NCBI GenBank assembly: GCA_963662715.1
Contig: OY759724.1
Coordinates: forward strand, 1,200,001 to 1,232,000
Length of the DNA stretch: 32,000 bases
Direction of reading: 5' to 3'
Source of the DNA: Candidatus Omnitrophota bacterium
Lineage (GTDB): Bacteria > Omnitrophota > Gorgyraeia > Zapsychrales > JANLHA01
Position numbers and translations under genes: made by a program. Of the stretch, positions 15,001 to 32,000 are shown in pieces (the stretch's first letter is position 1; every line of letters begins with the position of its first letter). The notes beneath the pieces are model-generated. The model searched no databases, was not told the origin of the DNA, and saw nothing but the letters and a program-made list of their open reading frames with translations.

Positions 15001-18000
15001 TGACGCGAGATGCGTTCTGTTTCCATTGACCGGCTTTCCGGACGAAAGACTGCTCTAACTCGGTATATTCTCCGAAGAAGGCCTTAACCATCGCGACAAA
15101 TTGATTCCAAAGCCTTAACAAGGATTCGAGGAACGAGCCCTCCCGCATGATATCAGCGATAGAAATAACAACGGTTTCTTTTGTCTCCTCCTCATCTTCC
15201 ACCGGGACAAATCTCAAAGCCACTTCCGCTTTACCTGTTATGTAAGCTTTTGCCAACGGAACTTCTGTGATCGATGAAAGGGACAGTCCCCGTTCAGGGA
15301 CAGGCCTTGTTAATTCTGTTGTATTCTTTTCCAGCGGGCTGGAAGAATCGTTTCTTTGATTCCGCTCAATAGAGATAGGATCGTCAAGGCCAAATCTATT
15401 GAGCATTTGGGATGCCATACGATCACGATATATAGAATTCTTCTGGGCTCTTCGATGCAATTTAAATAACAGGATAAATGTACCCAATAATGCTAATATG
15501 CCTGGGATCTCAAACATCAACCTTGTATACTGTCCAGAAAAATCAATCTGCTTCAAATCTATATCGTATTCTCGAGCAACTTGCTGTGCTGATTCTTCAA
15601 CCGTCTTCCCTTCAAAGATATTTCTTATAAATTTCCACCCACTCCCTTCCTCCAACTGCTCAAACTGAATGGCAATCACGGCCCTTTGATAGCCAGTTTC
15701 TCTCGGGGTTCCTTGTAAATCTTCTGAAATAATTCGTAGTAATTGATTATAAATTGACTCGTCAATACCCAATTCAAAATGCCGCAAATAATCTATAGCA
15801 TAAACAATTTTGTGTTCCACAAATCCGAGACCTCTTGACAGAGGATACAGATTGTGTGCTGTCTCATGGGCAACCAAAGCCCTGAAAGCTTGCTCCGAAG
15901 GAAGATCTTTCTGTCTTAAGAAACCGATGTGATTGTCATTACCATGCCCGTGCGTCACAAAATTCTTTGCTATAGGAGATGTTATCTCATGAACCCTATC
16001 CCTTTGCTCTTCAGATAAGTATGGAGCGACCTTGGATATTAACGATCTCTGTTCTTCAACGACTATGGCAGCTTCCTCTCTATCAAAACCTCTGGACACG
16101 AGTCCTTCCACAGAAGATGATGTGTCATTGGCAAAGGTTCGGGAGAATCCGAACAACACCATGACAAACGTTGATATCATCAACAGCGTCTTCAAAACCT
16201 TCTTAATACCAGAAGAAGACAGTTCCCGTTCAGGGACAGGCCTTGTTAATTCCTTTAAGGAACTGCCGGTGGTAACCGCATCCCCTGTCTCACCCTTTAA
16301 CGCAGTTACCACCGCATATGTTCCTTGTCCCTTCACCCTTTCGTTGTTTGTTGATGAAAGGGACAGTCCCTGTTCGGGGACAGTCCCTGTTAATTCTGTT
16401 AATTCCTGATTCTCTATCGGACTGGAAGACGCGTCTCCAATGATTTTTCCGAGTAATTTTCTTGCATACGCAATTGCCTCGTCCTGGTCAATAAATTCAG
16501 GGCTGGTCGCAATCGTAATAATGGAAGCTCTTCTAGCGAGCTGAGCAAAATAATCCACCGCCACATCTTTTTTCTGAGCACTTAATCCTCTTAAGACATC
16601 AAGATCGACATCCAGCACGTTAAAGTCAAGTTCAGCCGCGTCAATATTTGCCCCTTCTTTGATCTTATATCTTAGTTCGTCACGGACCATCAAATGGGCT
16701 TTACGGTTTTCTGCGTTGTACATAAAATGCCATTCCGTGAAGAAGCCATTTTCCATAAGCGGAGCGATAAAGCCCTCGATTCCCATGACATCCTGTGAGT
16801 GTCGGTCAATTGTCGCTAAATCTAAATCGGTCTTATAGAACAAATCTTCCTGAGACTCGCGGTACCGCCGGGTCATCTCGGCATCGGCGTGAGCGTCGAT
16901 GTGCAGAATTTTGTTGGCCTTTGCCTTGATACGTCCTTCCTGAAGCATGAGCCACCAGAAGGAATAAGCATAATTATGATAATCCATCACCATCACAACA
17001 CGGTTATCCGGCAGGGTCATAACCACCTTATTTTTCATGCCAATCGTTTCGATGTGTTTGGCCGGCAAGTTCGGATCTTTCGGACTGCGGTAAATATCCG
17101 GCTGAACATCATCGAGGGTGCCGTTAAAGACCCATCCTTCCGCCTGCCATTTCTGGTCCACCGGGCTGGAAGATGCTTCCGGTGCTGCCGGCTTCAGGCT
17201 TCCTTCAGGTGTGAAGCTGAATTCTGCCGGAATGAAATCAATATCCTTACGGTTCAGATCGACCCGGGAAGCATACCGGGCAGCAAAAGACTCCTGCGTC
17301 AGGCTCCACAATTCAACCAGTTCCGGATTCGTCCGGAAGAACTCCGGACCGTTAAAGATCACTTCTCCCCGGTTGTTATAAAGAATGGCTTTTTCCAGCT
17401 TGGAGCGGGATATCGATATCTGTCCTTTGTACATCCTGACGATCTCCGGCTTATCAAAATACACATGGTAGAATTCTTTTCTGATATACTCTTCAATCGT
17501 GTTTCTGCCGCCCCGGATGACTTTGGCCGGGATCTTGTTATATTCATCCGTAAAGACAACATACTTGGTGTTTTCCTGGCCGTCGGCAAGGTTAATAATG
17601 ACGTCCTTGGCAAAGAGGAACCCGAATCTGTCCTGTGATGACAATTGTTTGAGCCCTCTCAGCGCAAGCCCTTCCGGCATGCCTTTCGTCTGCACCAGGA
17701 CTTTAAATCCGAGGTTCGTTGCAATATCATGCTCGGCCCAGTCGGAAAGATGGACCAGATCTTCATCGAGATTCCACAGCCAGTCTCGCTGATACGTGAA
17801 GCCTAAGGAATCCAGGCCATGCTGTTCTCCGTGCCGGGCCACATCATAGAAGTTCACCATGGCGGTTATATTAACCTGGCCTGCCTGCGCATAAATATCC
17901 TCTATCGGCAGATGCTCCTCTTTTCCGCTCCAAACTGAATATTCCCGGCCTTCGATATTTTCTTCAACTTTCCCGCCGTAATCGATAGTGACCACAAACC

Positions 18001-21000
18001 CTCTCTTCAATGACCTTGATATGATCTGCTGCCATGCCTCAATAGCCGGCTGGACAAAAACTTCGGTTCCTTCCGGCAGAGTAACGCCCAAACGGTCCAC
18101 GTAATCTTCGAGTTGTCTGCTGGACAGTTCGCCGATTTCATCCCGATAAGTGCCGTCCTGCTCAACCGTGTAGATTTCTTTAAATTCTCCCTCAACGGCT
18201 TTCAGCCGATGACCCGGCAGGTCATCGATCAACTCGTTGGACAGGAACACGCCTTCGATATCGTGAAGATCTTCTTCGGTGACATCAAGCACGGACTTCT
18301 CAATCCAGCGGACTTTACCGGCGAATTCGGCTAATTTTTCTCGCTGATTTGTCCTTAAGTTAGAACTGAATTCCACAATGACATATTCCAGAGCCTGGAA
18401 TAACTGCGGCTGATATTCCTTGAGATAGCTCATGATATTCAAGGCATATGTTCCGTTCCCGGCACCCATCTCCACAACGCTGAACTTGGCCGGCCGGCCC
18501 ATCTTGTTCCACATTTCGCTAAGCTGATACCCTGTAGAATATCCGAAATATTTCGCTGTTTTGCGGTCTTCAACATAGGTGTCAAAATCTTTTCCGCGTC
18601 CGATCTGCGCGATCCGGCCGTAATATTCTGTCTGGGCCTGCGACATAAACTCGGCAAATGTTTTTCTGTTCTCAATCGGTGAAGAAGATTTCTTGCCGGA
18701 ACCTCGATTGCCTTTTAATGTCTTGACCGCGACCATGGATCCGGGGATCCTTTTTTCCAGAGCGTCGACAATCGTCTGATTCTGGCCTACCGGGGTGAGC
18801 ACCTTAATCTTCCACTCCGTAAAGCCGTCTTCGATCTCCCGGCTCTCGATCTCTTTGATGGACATATTCATCTCGGCGATCCGCTCAGAAACGAGACTTT
18901 CCATGCCCGGCCACGGCTCGGTCACAATCGTAATCAGGCGCGGGATCGTCGGCATAGCCTTAGCGCCCTTAACCTTGAGGATGGCCTGCACATCGTCCTT
19001 CATTCCGTTAATCTCTTCAGCCGGGATATCCATATCGATCACCAGGTTATCCCCTTCCACTTTCTGTTCATGAACGTTGCCGAGATGCTGCGTGATGACC
19101 GCCACGATATCTTTAAGCAGACCGATACGGTCATACGGCAGATGCAGGGTCATCTTGCCATAGGTCTCTTTTGCCTTGCCTTTTTCGTAATACACGTCAA
19201 CGACATCAAATTTGACATGTCCTTCTTTAAAGTCCAATTTGGCCAATTTAACATTATCATTACCGACAAGCTGGAAGAACTCATCCTGTTCTTCCAGGAG
19301 GCCCCAGCGGAGGTACAGGCTGCGCACAAGACCAGCGTTCTGCAAACCTAAGCCTAAGGCCGACAGGGAATCCCGTCCTTTTTGCGCGGCATTGAAATCA
19401 AATTTCTCCAGCAGAAGCACTGTTCTTAGATTCATAGCGTTACGCAGGATAAAGCGGCGGTTTCTCTCCAGATAACTTCTGCTGTCTCCCGGTTTACCCG
19501 GACGGACCGGAGTCAGCGGATTAATGCCAACAATATCCCCGTTCTGCAGCTCATACTTCTCGCTTCTTATTTGACGGCCCCTGATTTCATAGGCGTCAAA
19601 ATCATTGCGGATTCTTAAAGTTTCAACCCCTAAATATTCGTCATCCAGTTTATGAATATCTTTTCTGGCAGCGATGTCCGCCGGGATACTGCCTTTCTTG
19701 AGTCTCAAAGTCTTGAAAGAATATTCGTGTCTGCCTTTACGGGTCGGCGGTTCATGGACCTGGACATAAACCCAGTCGCGAATGGATTCCAGCAAGCGTT
19801 CAAAATCAGCATCAAAGTCACCGGCGATATCAACCTGGCGGAAATTAAATTCCTGGTTAGGATACATTTCAACCATCTTGTAGAACCAGTGGGCCGCTTT
19901 GTTCCCGAAGCGCATAAGATTCAGGTTCGTCTCGTTCATAATCTTAATCTCAAGCGGCACGCCCTTGACCTTTGTCCATGATTTTGCCGGCAGCATAAGG
20001 CCCATATGCAGACTGTCATAACGGTCGAATTTCGCAATCATGCGGTGCTTGGTCCGTTTAGGAATGATGCTTCCGATGTCGACAAAAATTTCATCGCTAT
20101 ATTCATCAATAAGCGTCAAGGCCTCCCAATAATCCTGGATCTCCCCTTTCACGACCACATGCAAACCTAACAGGTCATAGAGAGGATCATCCTTGGCCTT
20201 CCTCTCCTGCCGTTCGAATTTCTCCGCGATAGAGTAAACGCTCTTGACGCGGGAGCTCATCGAGAACTTCACTCCGCTTTCTCCAAAAATCTCTTTCAGC
20301 CGTTGCTGGAGCTTTCTCTTAACCTCCAGCAACGTCCCCCTGGCTTCTTCATACGTCATGCCGAGCAGTTCCTCTTCGATCTTCCGCTTCATCTGAACAT
20401 ATTCCTGAGGATGGGCGACCATATAAATTTCATTACGCAGCATGGAGGAGAGATCATCCCGGCCGAGACGTTCGGCTAACGGTGCGAAAACGTCTTCAAC
20501 GACCTCTTCAAAATATTTCAATTGTTCCTGCGCCGCCTTATCAATTTTCCTGCCCCGGAACTTCTGAATGGTGCTGTAAACTTCCTTGAAGATCTGCGAC
20601 ATGCCCTTAGCGGAACCGGCCAACTGGACGATCATCTCCATATAATTCTGAATGGAGTCGCCGCGCTGATACACAGGGATGTCGGTAATGCTCGGGACCC
20701 GCGCTAAGCCCTTCTTCACCGCCTTCTTCTTGATCGGCGAAGAGGAATGTTGCTCTCCATAGAATTCATCCAAAGTTATCATCCTGTCTGTCGGAACCTG
20801 TGCCGGCCGCCAGGCCACAATGACAGGAGTCATGATCCCCGGAGTCGTCGGCAGGTAGCCCCGCAATTCTTCAAAGACGCGTATTTCGGTCAAGCCTATA
20901 CTGCGCAGATAATCTTTGTAGCGCTGATAACTGGAGACCGCCATGTCATCGTGTTGGATGCGGACAAAAACCATGGCCGGGCCTTTGACCGGAAGCAGTT

Positions 21001-24000
21001 CGGGCAACGACCTCTTGATCTCATCAAACACACCTTCGGCAAAGAACGGCTCATTCAAAGTGATGACGTTGAATTGATGCCGCAATTCTTTCTCAAAACC
21101 GGCCTCTTGAGCTGACAGGCCATAAAATTCCGCCTCTCCCTCGTCCGGACTGGTCAACGGGTCAATGCCGGTCACTCTCTTCAACAGCTCCATAGCTTTG
21201 CTGCTGGCGGCTATGGTATTGGCAAACGCATTATCACCCGCTCCGATATCAAGGAGGGCGGCATCTTTTCCAACATATTGTTCGATCAACCTTAAGAACG
21301 TTGTGTCTCCTTGGGTCCACTCTTCGCCGCTTAACCGGGCCTCAGCAAGAACCCCTTGCATCCTCTGATCAAAACTTGCGTTCCCTGAGGAGCGGTTGAG
21401 CATCGGAGAACTGACAGCGCCCGTTTGAGTTTCACTAGAAGCAATAGAATCGTCTCCTGAAGCAATTTTTGCTTCAATTGTCCGGGTCATCGTTTCAACA
21501 AAATATTCATTCATATCCAACGGAGTTGAGCTCATCAACGTGGAAGCGCCGACGCTGCTCTTGACAACTGACTTGATACTGCTGCTGACGGTATCGGCTT
21601 CTTTGCTTGCCAGGTAAGCCGCATATTCTTCGGCGCTTAACGGCGCAGAGCTCATTAACGTGGAAGCGCCGACGGTACTCTTCGCTGCTTCCTTGATACT
21701 GCTGCTGACGGTATCGGCTTCTTTGCTCGCCAGGTAAGCCGCATATTCTTCGGCGCTTAATGGCGAAGAGCTCATTAACGTGGAAGCGCCAACCGATGTT
21801 TTTCTCTCAACCGGCTGAACCTGGACTTCATCAATCAATCGTAAGCTGCTTCCCTGGGCCACCCGGGCAGCCGGGGTAACAACCTTGGTGTAGACATGGC
21901 TCAGAGCCCCGAACGCTCTCATAAGGAACCTCACCAGGAAGTCCAACAAGAACCTCAACAGCATGGCCATTCTCTTCATCAGGGATGCCATGGTGATATA
22001 AATCACTTCCTTTTGCTCAACTGTTTCATCGACAGCCGGGAAGACCAGGCTTATCTCGGCATTATCCCGAACCGCGTCTTTTCTGCCCGGGACAATGATC
22101 AGGGCTTTCTGCCAGGCAGCAAGGCCTTCATAGGCACGGCGGCCGGCTGAGAGAAGACCGGTTTCCACCACGTGGCTCTGATGAGAAGAAACCGGCGAAG
22201 AAACTTCTTCCAGGACCGGGGAAGAAGAAGCCTTAGGAGCAACCTTGTAAGGTGTGAGCGTCCAGATAACAGCATTAATTCTTTCCTCATTACCATAAAC
22301 TAATTTCAGCAATTCTTTTTCTTCATCCGTGAAGCTGATCTTTCCGGCTAATTCTTTGATTAGAGCATCCCTTTTCTTTGCGCTGGTTTCGGCGGCCGTC
22401 GCAATAATTTCCTCTAAATCCTGGGCCAAGGCAGCTGAATTCTCTTTGATCTTCTTCTCAATCAAGGCAAGCGCCTCTTCCTTCTTGGCTGCCAGGAAGG
22501 CTTCTGTCAGAGCCTTCTCCAACATCTTTTTGGCCTCCTCTTCATCATTACCGTTTAGATCCTCTAAGGCAGTTCTCAATTCTGCGCTTAAGCGGTTCTG
22601 CCAGATATCGTCCTTCTTTTCCGCGATATCTGATTGATTCTCAATCTTCGCTTTTCTCAACAATTCATCCGCATCCAATAATTTCTCTACGGCTTTCTCC
22701 TGCTCATCTTTATTCTGCTTCTCCATTTCCCCGTACAATGCTTGTCTGGCCTTAGCTCTGTCATTATCGCGGGTATCTTCCAAAGCTGCCCGGAAGGTCT
22801 TCGGAGATTTATACCAGACATCCTCTGTGACTACGTCCGTGACACCGCCCTTGGCTTTCCGGACTCCACGGAATTTATCCAAAAGACGCTTTAATAATTT
22901 CTCCGCCATCTTTTTCAACCCTGTTTTCTTGTTGTCCAGAACTGTTTTCTGTTGATCCTTTTGGGCTTTATCAATGTCAGCAAACAGCTTTTCTTTGAAT
23001 TTATCCACATTGTTTTCACTCACATCCAGCAGGGCCTGTCTCAGTTCACGATCCAAATCAAAGACTTCCAACACTGTCCTGCTGACAAATTCTTTCTTAA
23101 GCTGGGAAATTTTGTCTCCTTTTTCCGTCTTTGCTATTCTTGCCCGGGTTTCGCGCAGAGCTTCAACAACCTCCGGATTTCGGCTGATGGCTTTGATATA
23201 TCCGTCATAGTTCTTATCTTCTATGACCTTTTGAGCAGCCTCTTCGGCTTTCTTCTTAATCTGCCCGAAGAGTTTTTCTGCGGCCTTCTGGTGAGTTACG
23301 TTGCTCAACTCTCTACGAACCTGGGATAACAGTATCTCCGAAATGCTCTCGACATATGAATCCGAACTGACAAACAGTCTGTCAACGCTTTTCAGTAATG
23401 CATCTTCCATGCAACCGTCCTTGGCCTTTTCAAAAATCCCTTCTATTTCTGCCAACAATTTATATTCTTCAGAATCTCTGTCAACGGAATCAAAGGCCTT
23501 TCGGATAACAGCAATAAATTCATCCGCTGTCGTTCTGGCTTCCATGTATTCGAGTAGTATCGTAATATTACTGAATAACTGTTCTTTAACCGTGCCGGCA
23601 TAAATCGGCCCAAATTTAATTCTAATCTGCCTTAACCATTCTTCTCTCTTATTGGTTTCTAAGACTTCTTTATATTTGCTTACTAAGGCTTCTTGGGAAG
23701 CGTCCGGGCCTAAAGCTCTTAATGCGTTCTTCACCCTCTGGAACAAGACATCATGTGATTTCAGCTCCAGTCCGGTTAAAGACATATACAACTGAACTAA
23801 CTTTCTGAAGTCTACGCTTGATTCCGAACTCATCAGCATATTGATAAATCTTCTCTGTTCCGTCCCGTCTTTTTTCAATTCAATCTGCCTGAAGGCGTTT
23901 ACAGCGGCCGGGTTCTTCAAAACCTGACCGGCCACATATCCGGTGTCGCTGGCCTGGGCAAACATCATTTCGAACAGGAACTCCTGGGCTCTTTCTGCAT

Positions 24001-27000
24001 AAACATTAGTCTCCTCCTTAATCTCGGCATCTTTTTCATCCCCGCCCTTTAATATCACCAGGGCCTTTCTCAGGTCTTCACTTAACAACTCTTCTCTTTT
24101 CCAAACAAAATTATTAATAAATTCAAGGCGTCGCGATTCCTTTTCGTCTTCTTCCTCGGTAGCGCTGATCTTTTCCACGGCTTGCTGGAACAATTTAATT
24201 GTTTGCTTCAAAATATGATCCACGGCTTCGCTTAAATTATCCTCAATAAATTTCTCGCTGGACACCTGATCAGTAACATTTTTCCCTAAATCACCGCGGA
24301 TCTCTTCAGCCCGCTTGACTTTTTCCTTGGTCCCGGTGAACAAGCCGCTAAAGAAAGATCCGGCAAAAATACCTGCGCCGGCAAAAGCGAATAAACCGAG
24401 GAAGCCGGACGGAAGGAGAGGCAACAGGAACGAACTGATCAGCCACATGCTCACTCCGGCTCCTGCGAACCAGCCGAAGACCTTGACCTTAGGATTATCT
24501 AATCCGCGTCCTGAACCCGAGCCTCCTTTACCGCCGTTCTGAGGATTATCTGATCCTTGTCCCTGGCTTGAGCCCGAGTCTCCGTTATCGTTGTTCTGAG
24601 GAGCCGGCCCGCGGGTATCGTCTCCCGGGAACATCTTTCTTAACTGTCCGCCGATCCAACGCGGCACGTTGACAATCAAGCCCAGGATCAGGCCAAGGAC
24701 CGTCAGTGTCGACATGACCAGAGTTCCTGTCATGTAGAGATTCATATGATCTCTTAAGTCCTGAAGCTTGAACTTGTTCGTCTTCATAAGCGGATAAACG
24801 ATGATATAAAGCATCAGCGGGATATACGGGTAACCGCCCATAAGCAGGGATAGGCCGACGATAACTGCGGTGGTTAAGGCCCATTTCTTGAATCCGATCT
24901 TCTTGAAGAACTGCGGATAATGGGCTGTGAAGTGAACCTTGGCCCAGGTCTTGAATCCGACTGTTGTCGGAGTTGAACCCGGATTCAGGAGGAACGGCGC
25001 AAACATCGAAGCAAAGGCCATCAAGCTCGGGAACAGCGACCATATGGAACCAGGATTCATCCAGAGGATCGTACCGCTGATGACAAAGAGGATGCTCGGG
25101 ATGACCCAGCCGTAGCCTAATAAGTTCACCTGTGCGTACAAGTCGCCCTGAGTAAATAATTTTTTCGAATCAAAGCCCTTCGTCGGTTTAAACGGTACGA
25201 CAGTGTCGCGGCCTGGCCGACGTCCGGTAGCGATATAATCCGCCCGGTTCACCAAGGCCTTCTTCACACCGACCGAGAACGCGTTATAAACCAGGGACAT
25301 GTAGGTGATCGCCAGAAGCGGGAACAGTTTCAGGAACTTCACTGTACCGCGGACCAGACCTTTCTCCAGAACTGTCTGCAGATAACCGGATGAGGTGATG
25401 GCCTGCGATAAGAAGAAGCCGACCAAACCGAAGATAAGCTCGCTCGGGAACCCGGCAAACAAGCTCATACCGAACAATACGATGGTTAACAGGTATGTGG
25501 TATTGGAAATCACGACAAAAGGCTTGCGCAAGAAGTAGCCGATCGAAGCGACGAAGTGGCCCAGGGAGCGGCTGAAGCCGACGACCTTGGATTTGTTGTG
25601 CTGCCGCAGCATATGACCAATGGCCTGTTCAGCGGCACCAGCCCCGAATTTCTCGGAAATACCGACCAAACCAACGTAGACCGCTTCACGGCCTTTACCG
25701 GCCTGCATCAATTCCGTGTTCGACACTCTTTCACCCATGAGCGTGGCTTTGTAGGCGCCGAAGATATCTTCATTGACCCACGGAGCGCTGAAGAGACCTA
25801 ATTGTCTGAACGATCTGCCCCGGACAAAGTCAGGGTGACCGTAATGGTAGCGGATGCCCATGAAGTTCAGCACTCTCTGGACCATGGTAACGAACGTATG
25901 GTCACCGAAAGCGTGCACCGCACCGGCCGGAGAGAATTCGTCAGTAAAGATATCTTCCGGAACACCGACGATCGCGACCTGATCATCCCGGCGGAACTGT
26001 TCCATGACGTTCGGAGCCTTAAAGGTTTCTTCAAGGTAAAGATCCTGGTTCATGTCCATGACCATGACGATCTGGCCGCGGGTGAAGCGCAGGATATTAT
26101 TCTGGTTCATCGGTTTACCCTGACCGGCAAACGGATGGCTGTGCAGGCGGATCGGGTTGAGGCGGACCACGCGGCCGATGGTGTTGCCGTCCCGCTCAAA
26201 TTTATGCATAACATCCTCACCGTCCTGTACTTCTCCTGCGCGGTACTCAACCAAGGCACCGGCAAAACCGTTGATCCTATTGTCCGGATTGTGCAGGTAA
26301 GCCATTCTCATGGACGGGTATTTCTTCAGGAGCAAGTGAATATCCTGTATCAATAAATGGGCTTTAGCACTGTCTTCTTGCAGCAAGTCACCGTAAGGCT
26401 GGTCACCGGCGACAAACTCAAACTTCTCGTCAACTTTTGCGAGGATCTTTGCTTTGTAATCATATGCGTTATGGAGTTTCTCCTGTTGGCCTTCCAGTTC
26501 CTTTCTCAATTTTTCAAGTCCGGCGCGGCGCTCAGCCTTGGCTTCCTCATCTTCCGCAGCCTCTAATTCCTCTTCTGCCGTGGCGATCTTTTCATATTGA
26601 CTGAATATGTCATTTAGGACTTCTGTTAAGGCAGCCACAGCCTCTATTTCAGCTTTAAGAGCTTCTATTTTCTCCTTCTGCTCTTCAATCTGCTGTTCTA
26701 CAGCGGCGATCTGGATATTTAACAGCTGCTTTTCTTGCGACTCGCTGTCTTTCTTCGCGTTCATCTTTGCTATTAACTCTTTCAATCCGTCTTCCTGTTC
26801 TTCCAGGATTAATTTTTCATGGCCCATTTCCGCTTCGGCTTTCGCTTTCCGGCTCTCCTGGTCTGCCAGCAGCAAGCCTTCCAGAGTCGGGAAGTTGACC
26901 TTGGCCAAGAATTCATACATTTCTCTGTAGCGCATAATACCGCGGACCGAACGGGACAGCGGCTGGTAGCGGTAAGACACCCATAACCGGACTTCAAACT

Positions 27001-30000
27001 GCATATCTTCATCGTTGATATCGAGTTTCTGGCCGTAAGTCAATTGGTCCATGTTCTTGATATCATGCATCTTCCTCTCAAATTCCTGCTTCGAGATATT
27101 TTTAGCCGCATAATCGGCTTTCACTTCATTTTCCATTCTCTGAACAAAATTCTTCCATTCGTGCGGGGCTTTGCTGATGATATACGTCAAGAAAGTGGCA
27201 TTGGTCAGATATCTTTCGTTGATGGCATCATATTCATCAAATGTCTTGTCGCTGAACGGATACACAATGGTTTCAAACAGGAACGGCAGGGCCACACTCA
27301 TGGTATACATTTTCTCCCAGATCGGAGTCTGATCCATATCCATGAACAAGCTGGAGAGGAAGTATTTGATACGGGCCTGCACCCTTTCCGTTTCCGGAAC
27401 GGCTGAGAAGTCAGGCCGTCCTGTAACCTCACCCGTTAAGAAGTTATATTTTTCTTTGTGTTTTATGTCGTACCGCAATTTATCGGCTTGGTCGTCACTG
27501 AGTAAATCATCCTCTCTCAGGGCATTGATGATCATGTTCCAGGCCTCGGCCCAGGCAATCGTCTTCTGTTCGTCTGTCAGATCCACACGGGACATCACCC
27601 AGGTATCCTTGCCCTCTTCATCTTTAACCTTCCTGGCGCTGACGTGGGAGGCCGGCAAGTTCTTGTTCTTGAACTCTTCGGCGGCGCTTTCCAGGATATC
27701 ATCAACCGAATCTCCGCCGATCTTCTCCAAGCCGTAATGAGCTAAGATCACGTTCAGGAGCTTTAAGGCAAGCATTCCGCCCAGGATGATGCCCAAAGCC
27801 GGCCAGCTGATGAATCCGAGCGCGGCCGTCGGCCAGAGGAGTTTAACGGCTGTGAACCCGGCCAGAACATAAAAGGCTTTCGGAACATAATCTTTTAAGG
27901 TTTCTGTGAGGGCGGCTCCGACTTTGCCCGTGATGCTGTCTTTTGCCTTGACCTTGCCTTTGATGCCGGACCAGGTGAGCACGCGGTTGTTACCGTTCCA
28001 TTTGGCGATGATGTAGCCGAGCGCGCTTTCAATGAGGTAGAAGTAAGCGAAGATATCCAGCAAGAAGATCATGAAGAACACGGAGAAGGCCCCGGCCAGG
28101 AGAATGACATTCCCGAACGGCAGGACAGCGGTTCCCAAGCCCGGCAGCATCCAGGAGCTCTTGAACACAATACTGAGCGGCACAGCGAGCCATTTCCAGA
28201 TATACAGGTTGAAGACAAACTTGGCGAGGAAGGACAAGCCCATGACGATACCGGCACGGATCTTTCTTCCGGTGTTTCCGTGCAGTTTCTTCGGATTAAT
28301 TCCGGCATCCAGCGGCTGGATATCCCACTCATCATGATCCAGGGTCTTCTTCTGCGAATAAATCTTATCGATCTTCTTGATACCGAAGTACACCAAGATT
28401 GCCAGTCCGACAACGATGCCTACACCCGTCAGCCAGGACACTAAGGAGGCGCCGGCCAGGGCCGGGACCTTCCAGACCCCGCTCCAAATCAGACCGTAAG
28501 AGGAGGCAACGATCGTGCCGAGCAGGGTGGCAATGATCTTGTTGAAGTTGATGACGATCTTGAACCAGCCCAGGAGACCGAACTTGCTGGTCTGCACATC
28601 CGGATAAACTTTCCTGATATAGTCGTTGACGCAGATGGCCTTGGCCCCTGGCCCTGCCGGCAACTTATTGACATTAGCCGTGCGCATAAATTCAAAGGCT
28701 TCCTCAACATTTCTGTCAGCTGTCTTGTCCTTCTTTACATCCCTATAAATTCCAACAATATCCTTTCTCACCTGCTCTTCGATCAGGTCGCGTCCGGTCT
28801 GGCCGTTTTCATCCGGCGTCTCATACCAGGTAATGAACTTCGGTGAACGGAAGTACATTTCAACTTCGTCGTGCTGAATGACATCGGCGTTAGTGCGACC
28901 GCCCTTGGCTTTAGCGACTCTCTGGTGCAGGGACAGGATGACAGACCAGAGCCGGGCCTCCTGCTTCTCAATGACCTCGCCGATCTTCTTTTGACCGTAG
29001 CGTCTGAGTCTCAAGGCTTTATAGAATCGGTAGAAATCAACGGCAGATGTGACGTGCGCTGTCTTATCAGATGCCAAATTCACGAGATAGTAGAGATACA
29101 TTTCTTCAAGACCGAAGTGATTGTCGATCTGGTCGAGTTCATACTTCAGGACTTCTGCATCAAGCGCTTTGCCCATGATCCTCTCGAACCAGTCCCGGTA
29201 GCGCTTGAAGAATTCCTTGATAAACTCTTCTTCGGAAACACCGCTGTACAGGTCATTCTTCATTTCGCTGGTCAGCATGGTCTTGGCCATCAGGGCCACA
29301 GATTCCTGGAAGCCGTAAGCCGGCAGGTATTTGATCTTCGCCAGGATTTCTTCAATATTCTTAATACCCTTCCGGTCCAGTTTCACTTCTTCCGATTGAG
29401 GTGCAGGCTTCTTGTCCTTCTTCAGCCCTTTCTTCCGTAATATCTGGCTGATCCAGGCAACGATCTTTCCGATGATCAAGATACCCAAGAGGTAGGCTCC
29501 GCCCAAGCCGCCGACGACCTTCCATGACCGGCCTTCTTCAAGCCATTTCTGGAACAGTTTCGGACGGGCCTTATCGATCAGGTCATCATCGTTATAGGTA
29601 TATTCCTGTTCATAAATCTGTCCTGGAGATTCATCGTCTTTGACCAACCGGTAATTTTCCGGTTTGAACTGGCCGGGAGCCACGCCTTCGGCTTCGTCAA
29701 CCAGAATGCGTGTTCCCTGCAGGTAGGTCTGCTGACCTTCGGACTGGCCGTTTTCAGATTCTTCATCCTGAACAGCAAAGAATTCCAGGTCGCGGTAAAC
29801 CTTGATCACATGGCCTTCATCGGTAATGGCGGCCCACGGTTTTCTGTATGGAGACTGCGTATCATAAAGAACCGTCTCTTCACCCTTTGTGGCCACCCCG
29901 AGCATCTGCAGCATGATCTGCATGGTCACATGAGCATAATTTTCGGTCAACAACTGTCCGGCCGGTGTATAAACGATTTCACGCTGGAACGGAGCGTCCA

Positions 30001-32000
30001 AGACGAAGTATTCATAACCGCGGACCTGGCTGAGCGTCTTGCCGTCGTTATAAGAATACTGCAGGACAGGCAAGACCTTATCGGCGTCTGTTCCGAACAC
30101 TTCGGCGATGCTTGACTTGATATCCTCCGGATTGACAATCAGGCGGATCTCTGTTTCATCGGTATACGGCTCGGCCCAGCCTCTCGCCAGCAATTTCTCT
30201 GAAATTTCTTCCCAGTCAAGGCCTTCTTCTCTCTCGACCTGCTGCTGTGTCAGGACCTGCGGATCGACGATCTTGACCGTCATCTGCTCACCTCTTCCGC
30301 CGGTCAGGATGAACTTCCGGCCGTCATTGCCCAGGACATCTCTCCGGTAATAATCTTCCTCCTCGGTCGGAGAACGGAAAACCCGGACTTCTTTCAAGCC
30401 GTTGCCGTCCTTGAACACGATCGTTCCCGGATTGATTCCGACTCTCAGATCAACTTCAATATCTTCCCCGTTATTGACCTTGAGCTTGTGTCCTTCCAGC
30501 CACAGGACATTAATACCGAAATCTTTGTTGGCATAAAGCGTGGCGATATCGCGGCCGCGGCTGTCATTCGGAGTCAGGTAATGGTAAAGCTGCTTACCTG
30601 TCTTGTCCGGATTATATCGCGGCCGGCCCAGCAGAGGCAGGAGCGTCTTGGCATCCGCACCGAACACTTCCGTCATCTCCGCTCTCACGTCATTCAGGTT
30701 GACGATCAGGTGAATCTCCTCAAGGCCTGTGCGCTGAGCCCACCCGTTGTGGAGCAGTTTTTCGGAGACATCGCTCCAGTCAAGCTCGGCTCTCTCGATC
30801 TGATTTTTGGTCAGATAACCGTTCTCAAGGATAACCGGTGTTTCCTCAACGATATCAAACAATGTCGCGCGGGAAATACCCATCTTGGCCAGATGCTGCC
30901 AGAGATAAGCATTTTCAAGTCCGAAGCGGACGAGCGCTGTTCTGTTGTAGGATCTTTCCATTTCCTCATTAAACAACGCCTCTGCCTGTACCTTCAGGCC
31001 AAGCGCTTCAGCCTCTTCAATACTTAACGTTCTGAAGAATGTTTCTATCTGATATTCAACCCGCTCTTCCGCTTTCTCTCCCGCAGGCCCTTCAATTCTG
31101 GTAATCACGTCATCGAGCTTCACGGACCGTTTCACTTCACCCGTTCTCTCATCAAACTCAAGACCCACGATAATTTCCACCAGGTCTCTTTCAAGATTAT
31201 CCGGGTTCTGGGCCGGGACAGCTTCTTCCCTGACCGTAATGATCTTTCTCTTCACCGGATCATGCGGGATTCGGTATGTCGTGGTTCGGACATTGTCAAC
31301 CGTTGTCTCTGTCGAAACCTCAAAGATCAGATCCGACAAATCATCCACTTTACTGAACCGGGACATATCAAGGTTCAGCAAGGCTTCTCTGACCAAATCA
31401 TGCTGGATAAGAGCGGCGAAATCGATCTGCTGAATATCTCCGGCCCTGACACGGCCCCTATTTTCCGTATCCCAGACTTTGACCCAGCCTGAACCGTTCG
31501 CGCGGATCTCAACCTCGCTGGTCTCATGCTTGCCTGTCGGAGAATATTCTTTTCTTTCCTGGATTCTGAAGATGCTCTTTTCACCCGCCCGCTCACCAAG
31601 CTGTTCGTTTTTGTCAGAATCCTTAACCAAGGCGAAGAGCTGTTCCTGATTTTCAAAGTTCTCCGGAATCTGGATAGACCCGATCTGTTCTACCATAATC
31701 TTGCCCTTAACGATTTCTCTGCGTGTGACAAGAGCGCTTCCGCCGAGTTTCTCCTGGTCTCTCAGGTTAATGAATGTCTGGACGCGGTTCTCCCTGGTTC
31801 CGGTATAGCTGTAAACTCCCGTGACATTTTCGACTTCAACCTCTGTGCCGTCTGCCTGACGGACCGTTACGGTGAGACCTGTCTCTTTCTTGTAATCCGT
31901 GGAATAAAGCTCTTCGCCCGTTTCCGGATCAAAATAACGGATCTCTTCGCGCTCAGGATCTGTGCTCTGCAGCAGTTCGCCCTGGGCATTGTACACGTCA
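1..32000 (-). CDS. Internal fragment of one giant multidomain ORF (10,666 in-phase codons, 31999 down to 2; both ends run off the window)
   Basis: Minus-strand phase has codons at plus coordinates 3k+2..3k+4. Hand translation of many separated stretches (2-580, 1121-1321, 2423-2461, 9362-9418, 21902-22138, 23042-23101, 24335-24490, 27482-27541, 31691-31999) is stop-free and protein-like. About 40 recognisable family motifs across the window all have low coordinates congruent to 2 mod 3. The ORF track (start-to-stop ORFs >=60 aa, TTG starts allowed) has no entry in this phase, which is expected only if the phase has no stop in the window. The other five phases never exceed 249 aa. Confidence 0.9.
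2..1285 (-). other. Module: GT30 Kdo transferase (WaaA/KdtA-like) domain, cut by the window edge
   Basis: IVVSACGVGEVINSISLIEALQQTYPDYRIVLLTNST (about 880-960) resembles the WaaA N-terminal S-x-G-E motif region. SFWYTLGGHNPLEPANFAKPVIVGPYTENF (GGHNPLEPA at 56-82) matches the conserved WaaA C-terminal GGHN-x-LEP motif. A hydrophobic stretch ACAAVIVSV (1160-1186) lies upstream. The module begins right after SSPV at 1286-1297. Confidence 0.75.
1298..2581 (-). other. Module: radical SAM-like domain
   Basis: IPVIQIMSGCNRGCLICLF carries the CxxxCxxC iron-sulfur motif C-N-R-G-C-L-I-C at 2429-2452, about 40 aa after the module start. The remaining ~380 aa were not recognised. The module is bounded by SSSPV (2582-2596) and SSPV (1286-1297). 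Confidence 0.5.
2597..3157 (-). other. Junction-delimited module (~187 aa), no family recognised
   Basis: Bounded by SSPV 3158-3169 and SSSPV 2582-2596. Starts SSGRVLPATIQPVSIESMQDFIQRHAYF and ends LKQSENENM. Confidence 0.35.
3170..3988 (-). other. Junction-delimited module (~273 aa), no family recognised
   Basis: Bounded by SSSPV 3989-4003 and SSPV 3158-3169. Starts IRKNNMPAERKDRDIAV and ends TVEAFMLSAAA. Confidence 0.35.
4004..4762 (-). other. Module: minimal (Pol-beta-type) nucleotidyltransferase-like domain plus helical tail
   Basis: RLVYAFGSSLWSTEPNDIDVVIVAD has G-S at 4628-4633 and D-I-D at 4595-4603. This is the G-[SG]-x(9-13)-D-x-[DE] signature of the NTP_transf_2/MNT family. Confidence 0.5.
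4775..6652 (-). other. Module: GT-B fold GT4-family glycosyltransferase
   Basis: VSYSSTFEAFGNGLIEGIAAQRPVIVYP contains the E-x7-E motif (E at 5324-5326 and 5300-5302) typical of Glycos_transf_1 retaining glycosyltransferases. The ~620-aa module begins GFVLHRMGNLDGVSLETKKW. It is bounded by SSPV 6653-6664 and 4763-4774. Confidence 0.7.
6665..7318 (-). other. Module: class I SAM-dependent methyltransferase-like
   Basis: RVVSVGPGDYAIS is motif-I-like. IDVVIMMSVLSY and MLREGATLLVGWF are in the order and spacing typical of the Rossmann-fold methyltransferase core. Motif I is divergent. Confidence 0.4.
7331..7942 (-). other. Junction-delimited module (~204 aa), no family recognised
   Basis: Bounded by SSPI 7943-7954 and SSPV 7319-7330. 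Starts LELHNQPALPTVIEIPLEDIMPLVP and ends GVAALVVPGVLVT. Confidence 0.35.
7955..8176 (-). other. Short Lys/Arg/Glu/Asp-rich low-complexity segment (~74 aa)
   Basis: EKVERKVEPVHKTVRTDKDRKQREDQQRKDKKSRKIEPIQDKVTISEEARRLYEETEAKRSTEGAEKKADDGAA. Bounded by SSSPV 8177-8191 and SSPI 7943-7954. Confidence 0.5.
8192..8728 (-). other. Junction-delimited module (~179 aa), helical, no family recognised
   Basis: Bounded by SSSPV 8729-8743 and 8177-8191. Starts ERRIRKADVLQELVEENAIRTAKDLAYYG and ends YELREADLDSENKAD. Confidence 0.35.
8744..9907 (-). other. Junction-delimited module (~388 aa), no family recognised
   Basis: Bounded by SSPI 9908-9919 and SSSPV 8729-8743. Starts EERETSPRPWNGPHRLNEIEEVF, contains ITDEELWDKVRTTPIETMFRR (9362-9418, verified) and ends ELPVSRMDL. 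Confidence 0.35.
9920..10750 (-). other. Module: Nudix hydrolase (preceded by a short helical, HTH-like segment)
   Basis: A complete Nudix box G-x5-E-x7-R-E-U-x-E-E-x-G-U reads GHPRIGEAGIKAIQREFQEELGV at 10346-10414. Confidence 0.75.
10870..11037 (-). other. Possible LuxR/sigma-70 region-4-like helix-turn-helix segment
   Basis: LGAREREVLKWVERETQGERGRVVRVTPQVIREVGVTSATQMDRILRKALKM resembles the L-T-x-R-E-x-E-V-L...HTH pattern. This rests on weak pattern recognition only. Confidence 0.25.
11380..12040 (-). other. HAD-superfamily (type IIB-like) phosphatase domain
   Basis: Motif I is MILSDYDGTLAA (DYDGT at 12011-12025). Motif IV is EVLVLGDNYDPENALSD (about 11405-11440). The cap-like region between them is compatible with a IIB sugar-phosphatase type. 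Confidence 0.6.
12470..12900 (-). other. ComF-like / type I phosphoribosyltransferase domain
   Basis: VDYIVPVPKMKGQYNQLLPLAETLAETLGAPV is followed by the PRPP-loop-like KTVVVLDDHAGSRLTLLELQYLLLNAGAKRVIILAL (VVVLDD at 12590-12607). Confidence 0.6.
13655..14599 (-). other. Module: CCA-adding enzyme / poly(A) polymerase (PolyA_pol) family nucleotidyltransferase-like, possibly catalytically degenerate
   Basis: SVFLYGWMVRDLLRGERPEHLGYLM (about 14440-14500) aligns to the GG-x-VRD-x-LLG...DxD head motif. The second Gly is Trp and the DxD position reads HLGYL. ASDLTINRMMLVFDDKSDDPILQDPFNGYQDLL (14224-14305) matches the RDFTIN-A...DPF-G-x-x-DL motif. Confidence 0.55.
14783..14935 (-). repeat. Two to three copies of a ~40-aa peptide repeat (V-G-A-x-T-x-M-S-S-S-P-L-x-x-E-E-Y-x-A)
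   Basis: PVGASTLMSSSPLTAEEYAAWKAAQSVETSAVKITS, then SPVGALTYMSSSPLSEEEYRAYLAEQARSTAGSIRKF, then a degenerate GAVSIMSAVPVNVDEHY. The same repeat family occurs at 21527-21800. Confidence 0.7.
15272..15316 (-). repeat. ELTRPVPERGLSLSS peptide/DNA direct repeat, copy 1
   Basis: In-phase translation is E-L-T-R-P-V-P-E-R-G-L-S-L-S-S. The DNA core 15281-15316 is 34/36 identical to 16217-16252. Confidence 0.85.
16211..16252 (-). repeat. ELTRPVPERELSSS direct repeat, copy 2
   Basis: In-phase translation is E-L-T-R-P-V-P-E-R-E-L-S-S-S. Near-identical DNA to copy 1. Confidence 0.85.
16352..16396 (-). repeat. ELTGTVPEQGLSLSS direct repeat, copy 3
   Basis: In-phase translation is E-L-T-G-T-V-P-E-Q-G-L-S-L-S-S. 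The DNA core 16361-16396 is 32/36 identical to copy 1. Confidence 0.8.
16430..17158 (-). other. Module: UPF0489-like (arginase/deacetylase-fold-like) domain
   Basis: VMVMDYHNYAYSFWW, ANKILHIDAHADAEM (about 16882-16912), NVLDVDLDVL and IITIATSPEF occur in the order seen in the UPF0489 family. Recognised from memory only. Confidence 0.4.
17174..18673 (-). other. Module: MidA/NDUFAF7-type (Methyltransf_28, DUF185) SAM-dependent methyltransferase
   Basis: FAEFMSQAQTEYYGRIAQIGRGKDFDTYVE, FSVVEMGAGNGTYALNIM (VVEMGAGNG at 18452-18478), FLSNELIDDLPGHRL and GFVVTIDYGG (about 17973-17990) appear in the family order. Confidence 0.7.
18689..20731 (-). other. Module: RelA/SpoT-homologue (p)ppGpp-synthetase-type domain plus TGS-like and ACT-like domains, no HD hydrolase
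   Basis: VEDVFAPLAERLG (about 20462-20500); SMSSRVKSVYSIAEKFERQ (about 20225-20280); LYDLLGLHVVVKGEIQDYWEAL (20141-20200); RYDSLHMGL; PLEIKIMNETNLNLMRFGNKAAHWFYK (AAHWFYK at 19877-19897). A TGS-like segment follows (about 19500-19770, ending LQNGDIVGI), then an ACT-like segment (about 18960-19160, LPYDRIGLLKDIVAVITQHLGNV). Only ~75 aa precede FAPLAERLG in the module and they contain no H-D motif. Confidence 0.8.
20747..21400 (-). other. Module: class I SAM-dependent methyltransferase-like
   Basis: LIEQYVGKDAALLDIGAGDNAFANTIA (LLDIGAGDN at 21230-21256) is a motif I look-alike. A downstream FNVITLNEPF segment is motif-II/III-like. Confidence 0.45.
21413..22189 (-). other. Module A: hydrophobic/amphipathic segment plus three 40-aa VGASTLMSSSPL repeats
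   Basis: RAYEGLAAWQKALIIVPGRKDAVRDNAEISLVFPAVDETVEQKEVIYITMASLMKRMAMLLRFLLDFLVRFLMRAFGAL (21902-22138, translated codon by codon) is followed by the tandem repeats at 21527-21800. Paralogous to module B. Confidence 0.5.
21527..21800 (-). repeat. In-frame 120-bp tandem repeat, 2.3 copies, encoding VGASTLMSS[S/A/T]PLSAEEYAAYLASKEADTVSSSIK
   Basis: Units 21531-21650 and 21651-21770 are near-identical and share gagctcat[c/t]aacgtggaagcgccgacg...gatactgctgctgacggtatcggcttctttgc...caggtaagccgcatattcttcggcgcttaa. A third partial unit starts at 21771. Confidence 0.9.
22232..24330 (-). other. ~700-aa Lys/Glu/Ala-rich, predicted alpha-helical/coiled-coil spacer
   Basis: Continuous charged helical-looking sequence, for example QLKKEFVSRTVLEVFDLDREL (23042-23101, verified) and EEAKKMLEKALTEAFLAAKKEEALALIEKKIKENSAALAQDLEEII. 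No Cys- or Trp-rich or catalytic motifs were recognised. Confidence 0.5.
24335..24480 (-). other. Predicted transmembrane hairpin (two hydrophobic helices)
   Basis: VFGWFAGAGVSMWLISSFLLPLLPSGFLGLFAFAGAGIFAGSFFSGLFTG, translated from 24335-24490. Confidence 0.6.
24491..24598 (-). repeat. In-frame imperfect tandem duplication (51 + 57 bp) encoding a Gly/Ser/Asn-rich low-complexity linker
   Basis: aggattatctaatccgcgtcctgaacccgagcctcctttaccgccgttctg (24491-24541) versus aggattatctgatccttgtccctggcttgagcccgagtctccgttatcgttgttctg (24542-24598). Protein reads PQNNDNGDSGSSQGQGSDN then PQNGGKGGSGSGRGLDN. Confidence 0.7.
24640..28600 (-). other. GT48 1,3-beta-glucan synthase (fungal FKS1 / plant callose-synthase-like) catalytic region with flanking TM clusters
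   Basis: WNMIINALREDDLL (27500-27541) matches the callose-synthase WN-x-II-x-x-REEDL motif. RLWVSYRYQPLSRSVRGIMRYREMYEFL (about 26905-26990) matches R-x-W-A-S-x-R-x-Q-T-L-x-R-T-x-R-G-M-M-Y-Y. GQGKPMNQNNILRFTRGQIVMVMDMNQD (26042-26125), followed by LYLEE, matches GEGKPENQNHAIIFTRGE...IDMNQDNYLEE. Also present: IVGVPEDIFT, RYHYGHPDF (about 25827-25850), NEDIFGAY, MQAGKGREAVYVG and ADYIATGRR (25217-25243). Multi-helix hydrophobic clusters lie at about 27740-28590 and 24650-25560. Confidence 0.8.
26440..26885 (-). other. ~150-aa charged coiled-coil insertion inside the GT48 cytoplasmic domain
   Basis: EGLLLADQESRKAKAEAEMGHEKLILEEQEDGLKELIAKMNAKKDSESQEKQLLNIQIAAVEQQIEEQKEKIEALKAEIEAV...AEDEEAKAERRAGLEKLRKELEGQQEKL sits between the RGIMRYREMYEFL motif and EKFEFVAGDQPYG. 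This is the position of the variable region in FKS/CalS proteins. Confidence 0.55.
29445..29515 (-). other. Predicted single TM helix separating the N-terminal repeat region from the glucan-synthase region
   Basis: KVVGGLGGAYLLGILIIGKIVAWISQILRKKG, translated from 29431-29520. Confidence 0.6.
30040..30790 (-). repeat. Intragenic tandem duplication of a ~188-189-aa unit (diverged)
   Basis: LDWSDVSEKLLHNGWAQRTGLEEIHLIVNLNDVRAEMTEVFGADAKTLLPLLGRP (about 30607-30790) aligns with LDWEEISEKLLARGWAEPYTDETEIRLIVNPEDIKSSIAEVFGTDADKVLPVLQYS (about 30040-30226). DNA anchors: ccagtcaag at 30776 and 30212 (564 bp apart) and gaacacttc at 30662 and 30095 (567 bp apart). Confidence 0.65.
31880..31999 (-). 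other. Possible degenerate YD/RHS-like repeats at the N-terminal edge of the window
   Basis: DVYNAQGELLQSTDPEREEIRYFDPETGEELYSTDYK resembles the Y-x-Y-D-x-x-G-x-L periodicity. It is a very short stretch at the window edge. Confidence 0.2.

Follow-up and report, generated by a model that had tools for sequence, protein, structure and literature searches.

Glycosyltransferases (GTs) of family GT48 construct the fungal cell wall, in which echinocandins and ibrexafungerp act on them; the family is also responsible for plant callose and the storage glucans of algae. Bacterial cellulose and curdlan synthases belong to family GT2, and the searchable literature treats GT48 as a eukaryotic family, its origin undiscussed. 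Here we analyse 32,000 nucleotides of a Candidatus Omnitrophota bacterium (GenBank assembly GCA_963662715.1, contig OY759724.1, positions 1,200,001 to 1,232,000; hereafter the window), in which a GT48-type module lies within a giant open reading frame (ORF). Judged from the sequence, we give a probability of about 0.78 to the reading that window positions ~24350-29356 encode a complete, functional synthase module of the FKS/callose-synthase type, representing an old bacterial branch of the family and sitting inside a giant polypeptide of an uncultured Omnitrophota bacterium.

Among described systems, the fungal synthases FKS1 and FKS2 (GSC2; PDB 7XE4, 8JZN and 9WZS) share with the window module the PF02364 domain, a profile match over FKS1 747-1316 and the order of their parts. 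At the level of residues, the likeness to FKS1 extends to the E-D pair, the D-x-N motif, the lysine and asparagine that contact the donor, and the blocks HYGHPD, YI[AS]TGR and APF[LV][FL]NP. The two differ in that identity is only ~25-30%, that FKS1 is a protein of 1,876 amino acids on its own whereas the module is embedded in more than 10,666, and that the C-terminal transmembrane (TM) region of the window is shorter (~390 against ~580 amino acids). The window further departs from FKS1 in having a bacterial host without Rho1, a 135-residue coiled-coil insert, no counterpart of Y849, and DMN in place of DAN. Plant callose synthases (CalS/GSL, likewise GT48) are the best named matches after the Omnitrophota proteins, and their FKS1_dom1 region aligns with the window, but the window lacks their Vta1-like N-terminal domain (PF25968) and the bacterial sequences form a separate clade. 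The GT2 synthases BcsA and CrdS resemble the module in expected action, in which a GT-A domain in the cytoplasm polymerises a beta-glucan and a coupled TM channel exports it, and FKS1 has been described as having a 'cellulose synthase-like fold' (PMC12715860). Unlike them, the window carries a metal-independent D-x-N instead of DxD and no PilZ/cyclic di-GMP domain.

Giant proteins of Omnitrophota have been described as 'Archaeovorins' (West-Roberts et al. 2023, bioRxiv 10.1101/2023.11.21.568195) and as 'multi-enzyme metabolic cluster' giants (Omnitrophota preprint, bioRxiv 10.64898/2026.06.07.730766). The window ORF is like these in its length above 10,000 amino acids, its Omnitrophota relatives, its TM helices and its mosaic of glycosyltransferase, methyltransferase, NUDIX and radical-SAM-like domains. 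Their GT domains are given as GT5 and GT1, and neither paper (main text and one supplement) nor Seymour et al. 2023 mentions GT48, glucan synthase or callose. A divergent SecA DEAD helicase domain is reported in most full-length giants, whereas no SecA_DEAD match was seen in the 10,666 residues present of the window ORF, which is incomplete at both ends. We found no mention of GT48 together with Omnitrophota or Elusimicrobiota in the searchable literature, in which a bacterial GT48 branch with complete FKS architecture is thus undescribed.

The GT48 module and its layout within the giant ORF

One minus-strand frame is free of stops over the entire window (0 stops in 10,666 codons in a six-frame check), and the other five frames hold 258-682 stops each. 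This frame (2..31999), open at both window ends, encodes at least 10,666 amino acids and carries Pfam domains along its length, in agreement with the giant protein that an initial annotation of this DNA had proposed. All features described below lie on the minus strand, and residue numbers refer to the partial ORF, the first base of residue i being window position 32002-3i. The annotation had placed a GT48 synthase at 24640-28600, that is, residues 1134-2454. This interval does hold the GT48 core and is too short at both ends, since the FKS-type module spans ~24350-29356. The GC content is 0.49-0.51 in the GT48 segment and ~0.50 in the window overall, with no compositional anomaly.

Assignment to GT48 was examined with domain profiles and structural databases. 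The Pfam profile PF02364 (Glucan_synthase, GT48) scored 232 bits (E=1.5e-68), far above the curated cutoff of 37.2, its best stretch falling on residues 1832-2177; in residues 1-3600 the only other Pfam match was a sub-threshold one to LUD. Searched against the PDB, the single window sequence matched only yeast FKS1 and FKS2 (7XE4, E=5.8e-33), and a profile of 11 Omnitrophota homologues matched FKS1/FKS2 with E=7.9e-51 in one stretch covering FKS1 747-1316, the whole GT domain. The initial annotation had named a GT2 processive synthase as the competing assignment. We ruled this out at the thresholds used: no GT2 Pfam family matched residues 1-3600 at E<=0.01, and the PDB matches of the 11-sequence profile at E<=1e-3 included FKS1/FKS2 only and no GT2 chain. 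NCBIfam, a prokaryote-oriented library, contains no model that matches the segment. With a strong match to PF02364, and with FKS1/FKS2 as the only structural matches, the FKS1/callose-synthase assignment made earlier was borne out, and the segment almost certainly belongs to GT48.

The six motif blocks quoted in support of that assignment are all present in the stated order, on the minus strand (no strand had been given). They comprise WNMIINALREDDL (residues 1487-1499, 27503-27541), RLWVSYRYQPLSRSVRGIMRY (residues 1671-1691, 26927-26989), GQGKPMNQNNILRFTRG...DMNQDLYLEE (residues 1959-1991, 26027-26125), HYGHPD (residues 2052-2057), NEDIFG (residues 2076-2081) and YIATGR (residues 2255-2260). 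The only correction is trivial: the block written as WN-x-II-x-x-RE-DL has three residues, not two, between II and RE.

The module follows the full eukaryotic FKS layout, in which a cytosolic FKS1_dom1-like domain comes first and two TM clusters follow, one on each side of the GT domain. By Kyte-Doolittle hydropathy, the N-terminal cluster comprises 6-8 hydrophobic segments (residues ~1142-1419, 27764..28558) and is equivalent to FKS1 TM1-6, and the C-terminal cluster comprises 7-9 (residues ~2139-2550, 24350..25522). The two multi-helix clusters that had been noticed on either side of the core are thereby recovered. Of the 17 strong hydrophobic segments in the whole ORF, 13 lie in these clusters. 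Within the C-terminal cluster, the presumed glucan channel, the motifs YIATGR and APFLLNPG (residues 2334-2341) align with RYISTGR and FAPFVFNP of FKS1.

Immediately N-terminal to the first TM cluster lies a divergent FKS1_dom1-like domain (residues 882-1063, 28811..29356), bearing the signatures YGFQES (residues 895-900) and HDEVEMYFRSP (residues 1043-1053). The initial annotation had suggested an FKS1_dom1 profile search. Single-sequence Pfam scans of eight sequences gave no match to PF14288 (FKS1_dom1) even at E<=10, so the domain must be highly divergent; profile-profile alignment recovered it. With hhalign, a profile of 32 bacterial sequences, covering the 260 residues that precede TM1, aligned to a profile of 39 eukaryotic N-terminal regions with a probability of 98.3% (E=1.5e-14), compared with 82% only in an earlier comparison that used an 8-sequence bacterial profile. 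Ten column-shuffled controls gave at most 0.2% and a reversed profile 1.8%. The aligned segment corresponds to callose synthase residues 246-442, the FKS1_dom1 region, and the common signatures are [FY]GFQ and [YH]DD..E.F[WR][ST]P. The domain occurs in 38 of the 41 bacterial GT48 proteins with at least 1,100 residues upstream, always 400-1,400 residues before the core.

Upstream of it, residues 1-880 (29360..31999) form a conserved block of no known family, recognised by co-linear blastp matches. It accompanies the GT48 module co-linearly at 11 Omnitrophota loci, with 23-35% identity, and retains 40 invariant residues in eight sequences. It has no Pfam match, and an 8-sequence profile gave no PDB match at E<=1; its homology may continue past the window edge. 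Compared by blastp with the GT48 ORFs of 13 related loci, the window is co-linear over residues ~1-2550 and essentially not at all beyond, with 42-63% identity in the GT core and 23-35% in the upstream ~1,100 residues. This pattern marks residues ~1-2550 as a conserved cassette, which reappears in giant ORFs of Omnitrophota and Elusimicrobiota that are not related elsewhere. The partners of the cassette differ from protein to protein, from Peptidase_C39, DUF6531 and RHS repeats in P0020 to HEAT repeats in P0024 and none in P0014, and such variation is consistent with a shuffled cassette. P0020 (Omnitrophota, 3,033 amino acids, partial) also has a 3-keto-disaccharide-hydrolase-like domain downstream, and its tail is polymorphic-toxin-like.

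Active site and proposed mechanism

The catalytic domain is split by an insert. Its first half (residues 1480-1716, 26852..27562), which includes E1576, aligns to FKS1 747-985. The second (residues 1887-2150, 25550..26341) aligns to FKS1 1018-1318 and carries GKPMNQN (K1962, N1965), D1982-M-N1984, HYGHPD and E2077-D2078. In FKS1, the residues with experimental support are Y849, E851, K1082 and N1085, which bind UDP-glucose, the metal-independent motif D1102-A-N1104 and the catalytic pair E1221-D1222 (PMC12715860). The HMMER alignment gives L1574, E1576, K1962, N1965, D1982-M-N1984 and E2077-D2078 as the window equivalents. We assessed their conservation in an alignment of the window with ten Omnitrophota homologues of 41-74% identity. 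E1576, K1962, D1982, N1984, E2077 and D2078 are invariant in all 11 sequences and N1965 is at least 90% conserved; the blocks HYGHPD, WVNEDIFGAYK and APFLLNPG, as well as Y, T, G and R of YIATGR, are invariant too. We read this pattern as purifying selection that preserves catalysis, in an enzyme whose donor pocket differs slightly, and the module is very probably an active processive synthase.

The E/A/K-rich coiled-coil insert of ~135 residues (residues 1715-1850, 26450..26857) occupies a loop of the GT domain. Among the homologues, P0001, the closest relative of the window, alone shares it; apart from L001, which carries an unrelated insert of 94 residues, the rest have 2-16 residues at this site. 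The coiled coil may be a lineage-specific interaction or regulatory element.

By analogy with yeast FKS1 (PMC12715860), a GT-A-type catalytic domain on the cytoplasmic face, at the membrane interface, would bind UDP-glucose and extend the chain processively, relying on the catalytic E-D pair and on a D-x-N motif that needs no metal ion. As it grows, the beta-glucan (most likely beta-1,3-linked) would pass through a channel formed by both TM clusters to the periplasmic or outer side and there become part of an envelope, coat or attachment matrix. Family membership makes beta-1,3-glucan the likelier product, with less assurance than the synthase activity itself. The module would probably also hold the remaining domains, an enzyme array that is mostly cytoplasmic, at the cytoplasmic (inner) membrane. 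We assign it this anchoring role because its TM clusters contain most of the strong hydrophobic segments, and we place the array in the cytoplasm because the other domains need ATP or GTP, phosphoribosyl pyrophosphate, S-adenosylmethionine and nucleotide sugars.

Bacterial relatives, phylogeny and competing explanations

The closest protein, P0001, is a partial hypothetical protein from a Candidatus Omnitrophota metagenome-assembled genome (MAG) with 74% identity. All other matches in the same search were eukaryotic callose synthases of 26-33% identity, the named plant enzymes reaching E values down to 1.5e-37. A collection of species-level genomes yielded nine related loci, all in Omnitrophota MAGs including two labelled 'uncultured Planctomycetales', and four more were found on metagenome contigs of up to 1.17 Mb, giving 13 loci in total. 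The two so labelled, L002 (CAZBHY010000097.1) and L007 (CAZQQI010000004.1), branch among the Omnitrophota sequences in the tree, and the taxonomic label itself may be provisional or mistaken. At 11 of the 13 loci, the ORF with GT48 runs off both ends of the retrieved DNA, with ORFs ranging from at least 1,990 to at least 7,447 amino acids; in L003, GT48 lies near the C-terminus of a giant ORF. The viral contigs searched held no GT48 relatives.

An exhaustive HMMER search of 1.84 billion cluster representatives returned 901 clusters at E<=1e-3, of which 596 passed E<=1e-10 and 202 passed E<=1e-30. The top ~85 matches were mostly long proteins, up to 7,886 amino acids, with the GT48 match deep inside. 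Bacterial-type GT48 accounted for at least 71 clusters besides the window, about half of the best 150; the family is less confined to eukaryotes than the earlier description of it as overwhelmingly eukaryotic supposed. Clusters labelled Omnitrophota were P0014, P0015, P0020, P0024, P0033, P0096 and P0154. A second phylum was represented by P0026 (Elusimicrobiota bacterium) and P0031/P0165 (Endomicrobiia MAG); P0165 is a complete protein of 5,737 amino acids on a 212-kb Endomicrobiia contig, with an FKS1_dom1-like region matched at E=4e-20.

We built a neighbour-joining tree from 251 trimmed columns of the conserved core, using 147 sequences from the best 150 matches of the bacterial query. It splits into 75 sequences on the eukaryotic side and 72 comprising the window and 71 bacterial-type proteins, with 99/100 bootstrap support. 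The labelled eukaryotes, namely land plants, a diatom, Protostelium, Cyanophora, chytrid and blastoclad fungi, Picozoa and oomycetes, all fall among the 75. On the eukaryotic side the median protein length is 1,745 amino acids and the longest protein has 2,538; for the 71 bacterial-type proteins the corresponding figures are 2,625 and 7,886. The mean pairwise distance is 1.21 within bacteria, 0.78 within eukaryotes and 1.63 between them. The tree thus places the window GT48 in an old, diverse bacterial branch of the family.

The tree is in substance unrooted, and it would fit an ancient passage from bacteria to a proto-eukaryote as well as one from an early eukaryote to bacteria. Midpoint rooting is unreliable because giant proteins evolve fast. 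P0187, a protein of 578 amino acids with Pfam matches to both PF02364 and GT2, was tried as an outgroup and rejected; it proved to be a fragment inside the eukaryotic clade, 64% identical to P0074/P0076, and as an ingroup fragment it could not root the tree. P0074, P0076, P0081 and P0187 form a lineage near the base of the eukaryotic clade that is intron-less and fills entire metagenome contigs of 5-7 kb, for example 2,136 amino acids on a 6.7 kb contig. The single member with a label is from a eukaryotic transcriptome and matches the GT2 Pfam family PF13632 as well.

The initial annotation had described the synthase as eukaryote-type, had raised horizontal acquisition and had proposed a phylogeny; the tree gives the bacterial GT48 sequences a clade of their own and lends no support to a recent transfer. 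The separation of that clade from all sampled eukaryotes, at 99/100, argues that the module is not a recent import from eukaryotes. A recent eukaryotic transfer, eukaryotic contamination or a chimeric MAG assembly would fit the habit of the literature and of curated prokaryote resources of treating GT48 as eukaryotic, the lack of a matching NCBIfam model, and the outcome of the first homologue search, in which all matches except one Omnitrophota fragment were plant callose synthases. Against these origins, the segment lies in frame in a 32-kb intron-less ORF with typical bacterial domains and has the same GC content as its surroundings; homologues of 42-63% identity occur at 13 independent Omnitrophota loci; and the bacterial clade stands outside plants, fungi, oomycetes and amoebozoans. 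We therefore regard all three as extremely improbable. A relic devoid of catalytic activity, retained only to anchor or scaffold the giant protein at the membrane, would agree with the concentration of the ORF's hydrophobic segments in its two TM clusters and with the report that giant Omnitrophota proteins are fast-evolving and poorly conserved (PMC10066038). Yet the catalytic and donor residues and the blocks HYGHPD, NEDIFGAYK and GQGKPxNQN are invariant across sequences whose overall identity is only 41-58%, and no part of the cassette is better conserved than the GT core (42-63% against 23-35% in the flanks), which makes a relic highly unlikely. A processive synthase of GT48 fold with a product other than beta-1,3-glucan, using another linkage, another donor, or a lipid or protein acceptor in the envelope or adhesion chemistry of ultra-small bacteria, deserves more weight, although we still consider it unlikely. 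Every characterised GT48 makes beta-1,3-glucan from UDP-glucose, and the donor-binding and catalytic residues other than the Y849 equivalent are invariant. In favour of another product are the 25-33% identity to characterised enzymes, the unconserved Y849-equivalent residue in the donor pocket, the change from DAN to DMN, the lineage-specific insert of 135 residues in the GT domain, and the long branch between the bacterial clade and all characterised enzymes.

Several points weigh against a complete, functional FKS-type synthase inside one giant polypeptide, the reading we prefer. Fungal FKS1 cannot work without its activator Rho1, which to our knowledge bacteria lack, so the bacterial enzyme must be regulated in another way. 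Identity to characterised enzymes is only ~25-33%, and the assignment of donor sugar and linkage depends on that comparison. At the Y849-equivalent site the window has L, and across the 11 aligned sequences Y or F occurs in six, with L, N or G in the others; the window also reads DMN where FKS1 has DAN. Helix counts in the TM clusters are ranges from hydropathy only. AlphaFold2 models had a mean predicted local distance difference test score (pLDDT) of 42.8 for residues 1240-2439 (13 sequences), where only the coiled-coil insert was modelled with confidence, as helix, and of 42.0 for residues 1870-2450 (18 sequences); we attribute this low confidence to alignments of only 13-18 sequences. The giant ORF may not be made and kept as one polypeptide: in Ca. 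Zapsychrus exili (locus L009, JAVCCJ010000121.1, 58-22388), its equivalent is split into adjacent ORFs. An ORF of 3,010 amino acids (58-9090) holds the upstream block and the FKS1_dom1-like domain, and overlaps, in another frame, the start of the GT48 ORF of 2,761 amino acids (9065-17350); after a single TAA at 17348-17350, the frame of the GT48 ORF stays open for at least 1,679 codons. The split is probably a frameshift or a sequencing indel, because homology to the window is unbroken across the junction.

A deep bacterial branch makes the origin of eukaryotic beta-1,3-glucan synthesis testable. GT48 may not be a eukaryotic invention at all: the full FKS architecture could have appeared first in bacteria and survived in the giant proteins of Omnitrophota and Elusimicrobiota, and eukaryotes would have obtained their enzymes from such a bacterial ancestor before the time of their last common ancestor. 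We put this forward tentatively and hold it to be doubtful at present. If it were true, ultra-small, possibly predatory or epibiotic bacteria would make a coat or attachment matrix of callose-like or curdlan-like beta-1,3-glucan with a giant membrane-anchored enzyme assembly. Bacterial GT48 enzymes may also offer simpler, Rho1-independent models of mechanism. For the giant proteins of Omnitrophota, which have been described as poorly understood, our analysis yields the biochemically testable prediction that one part is a membrane-embedded polysaccharide synthase and exporter. Such a module would also account for where and how the giant polypeptide sits in the membrane, and the ~2,550-residue cassette can serve as a marker for tracing the assembly of giant-ORF genes.

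Other domains and composition of the window

Beyond the cassette, the ORF encodes a series of domains typical of bacteria. Pfam places RelA_SpoT at residues 3916-4042 (19874-20254) and Methyltransf_28 at residues 4491-4735 (17795-18529, E=1.4e-50). These are followed by a UPF0489/peptide-arginase-like domain (residues 5002-5098, 16706-16996), a phosphoribosyltransferase domain (Pribosyltran; residues 6408-6507, 12479-12778) and a NUDIX domain (residues 7160-7303, 10091-10522), with weak matches to GT1 at 5210-5377 and to radical SAM at 2351-2470. It is odd in itself to find a (p)ppGpp-synthetase-like domain in a giant protein of structural or enzymatic function.

The GT48 core had also been described as fused to GT4 and GT30 domains. 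The latter is present as a Kdo-transferase-type GT-B N-domain (PF04413, Glycos_transf_N; residues 10337-10511, 467-991; E=2.6e-18). For GT4, the PF00534 match of 24.5 bits lies under the Pfam cutoff of 26.4. Both matches are more than 6,000 residues away from the GT48 module.

Window positions 7001-10000 depart from the rest in composition, with a GC content of 0.54-0.55, a GC skew down to -0.27 and an AT skew to -0.19; residues ~7330-8330, which fall within this region, have no obvious low-complexity composition or repeats. A tandem repeat at 21528-21790 has a period of 120 nucleotides and 2.2 copies of 91% identity, which translates into a 40-residue repeat at residues ~3404-3491, and it is the only tandem repeat in the window that scores at least 80.

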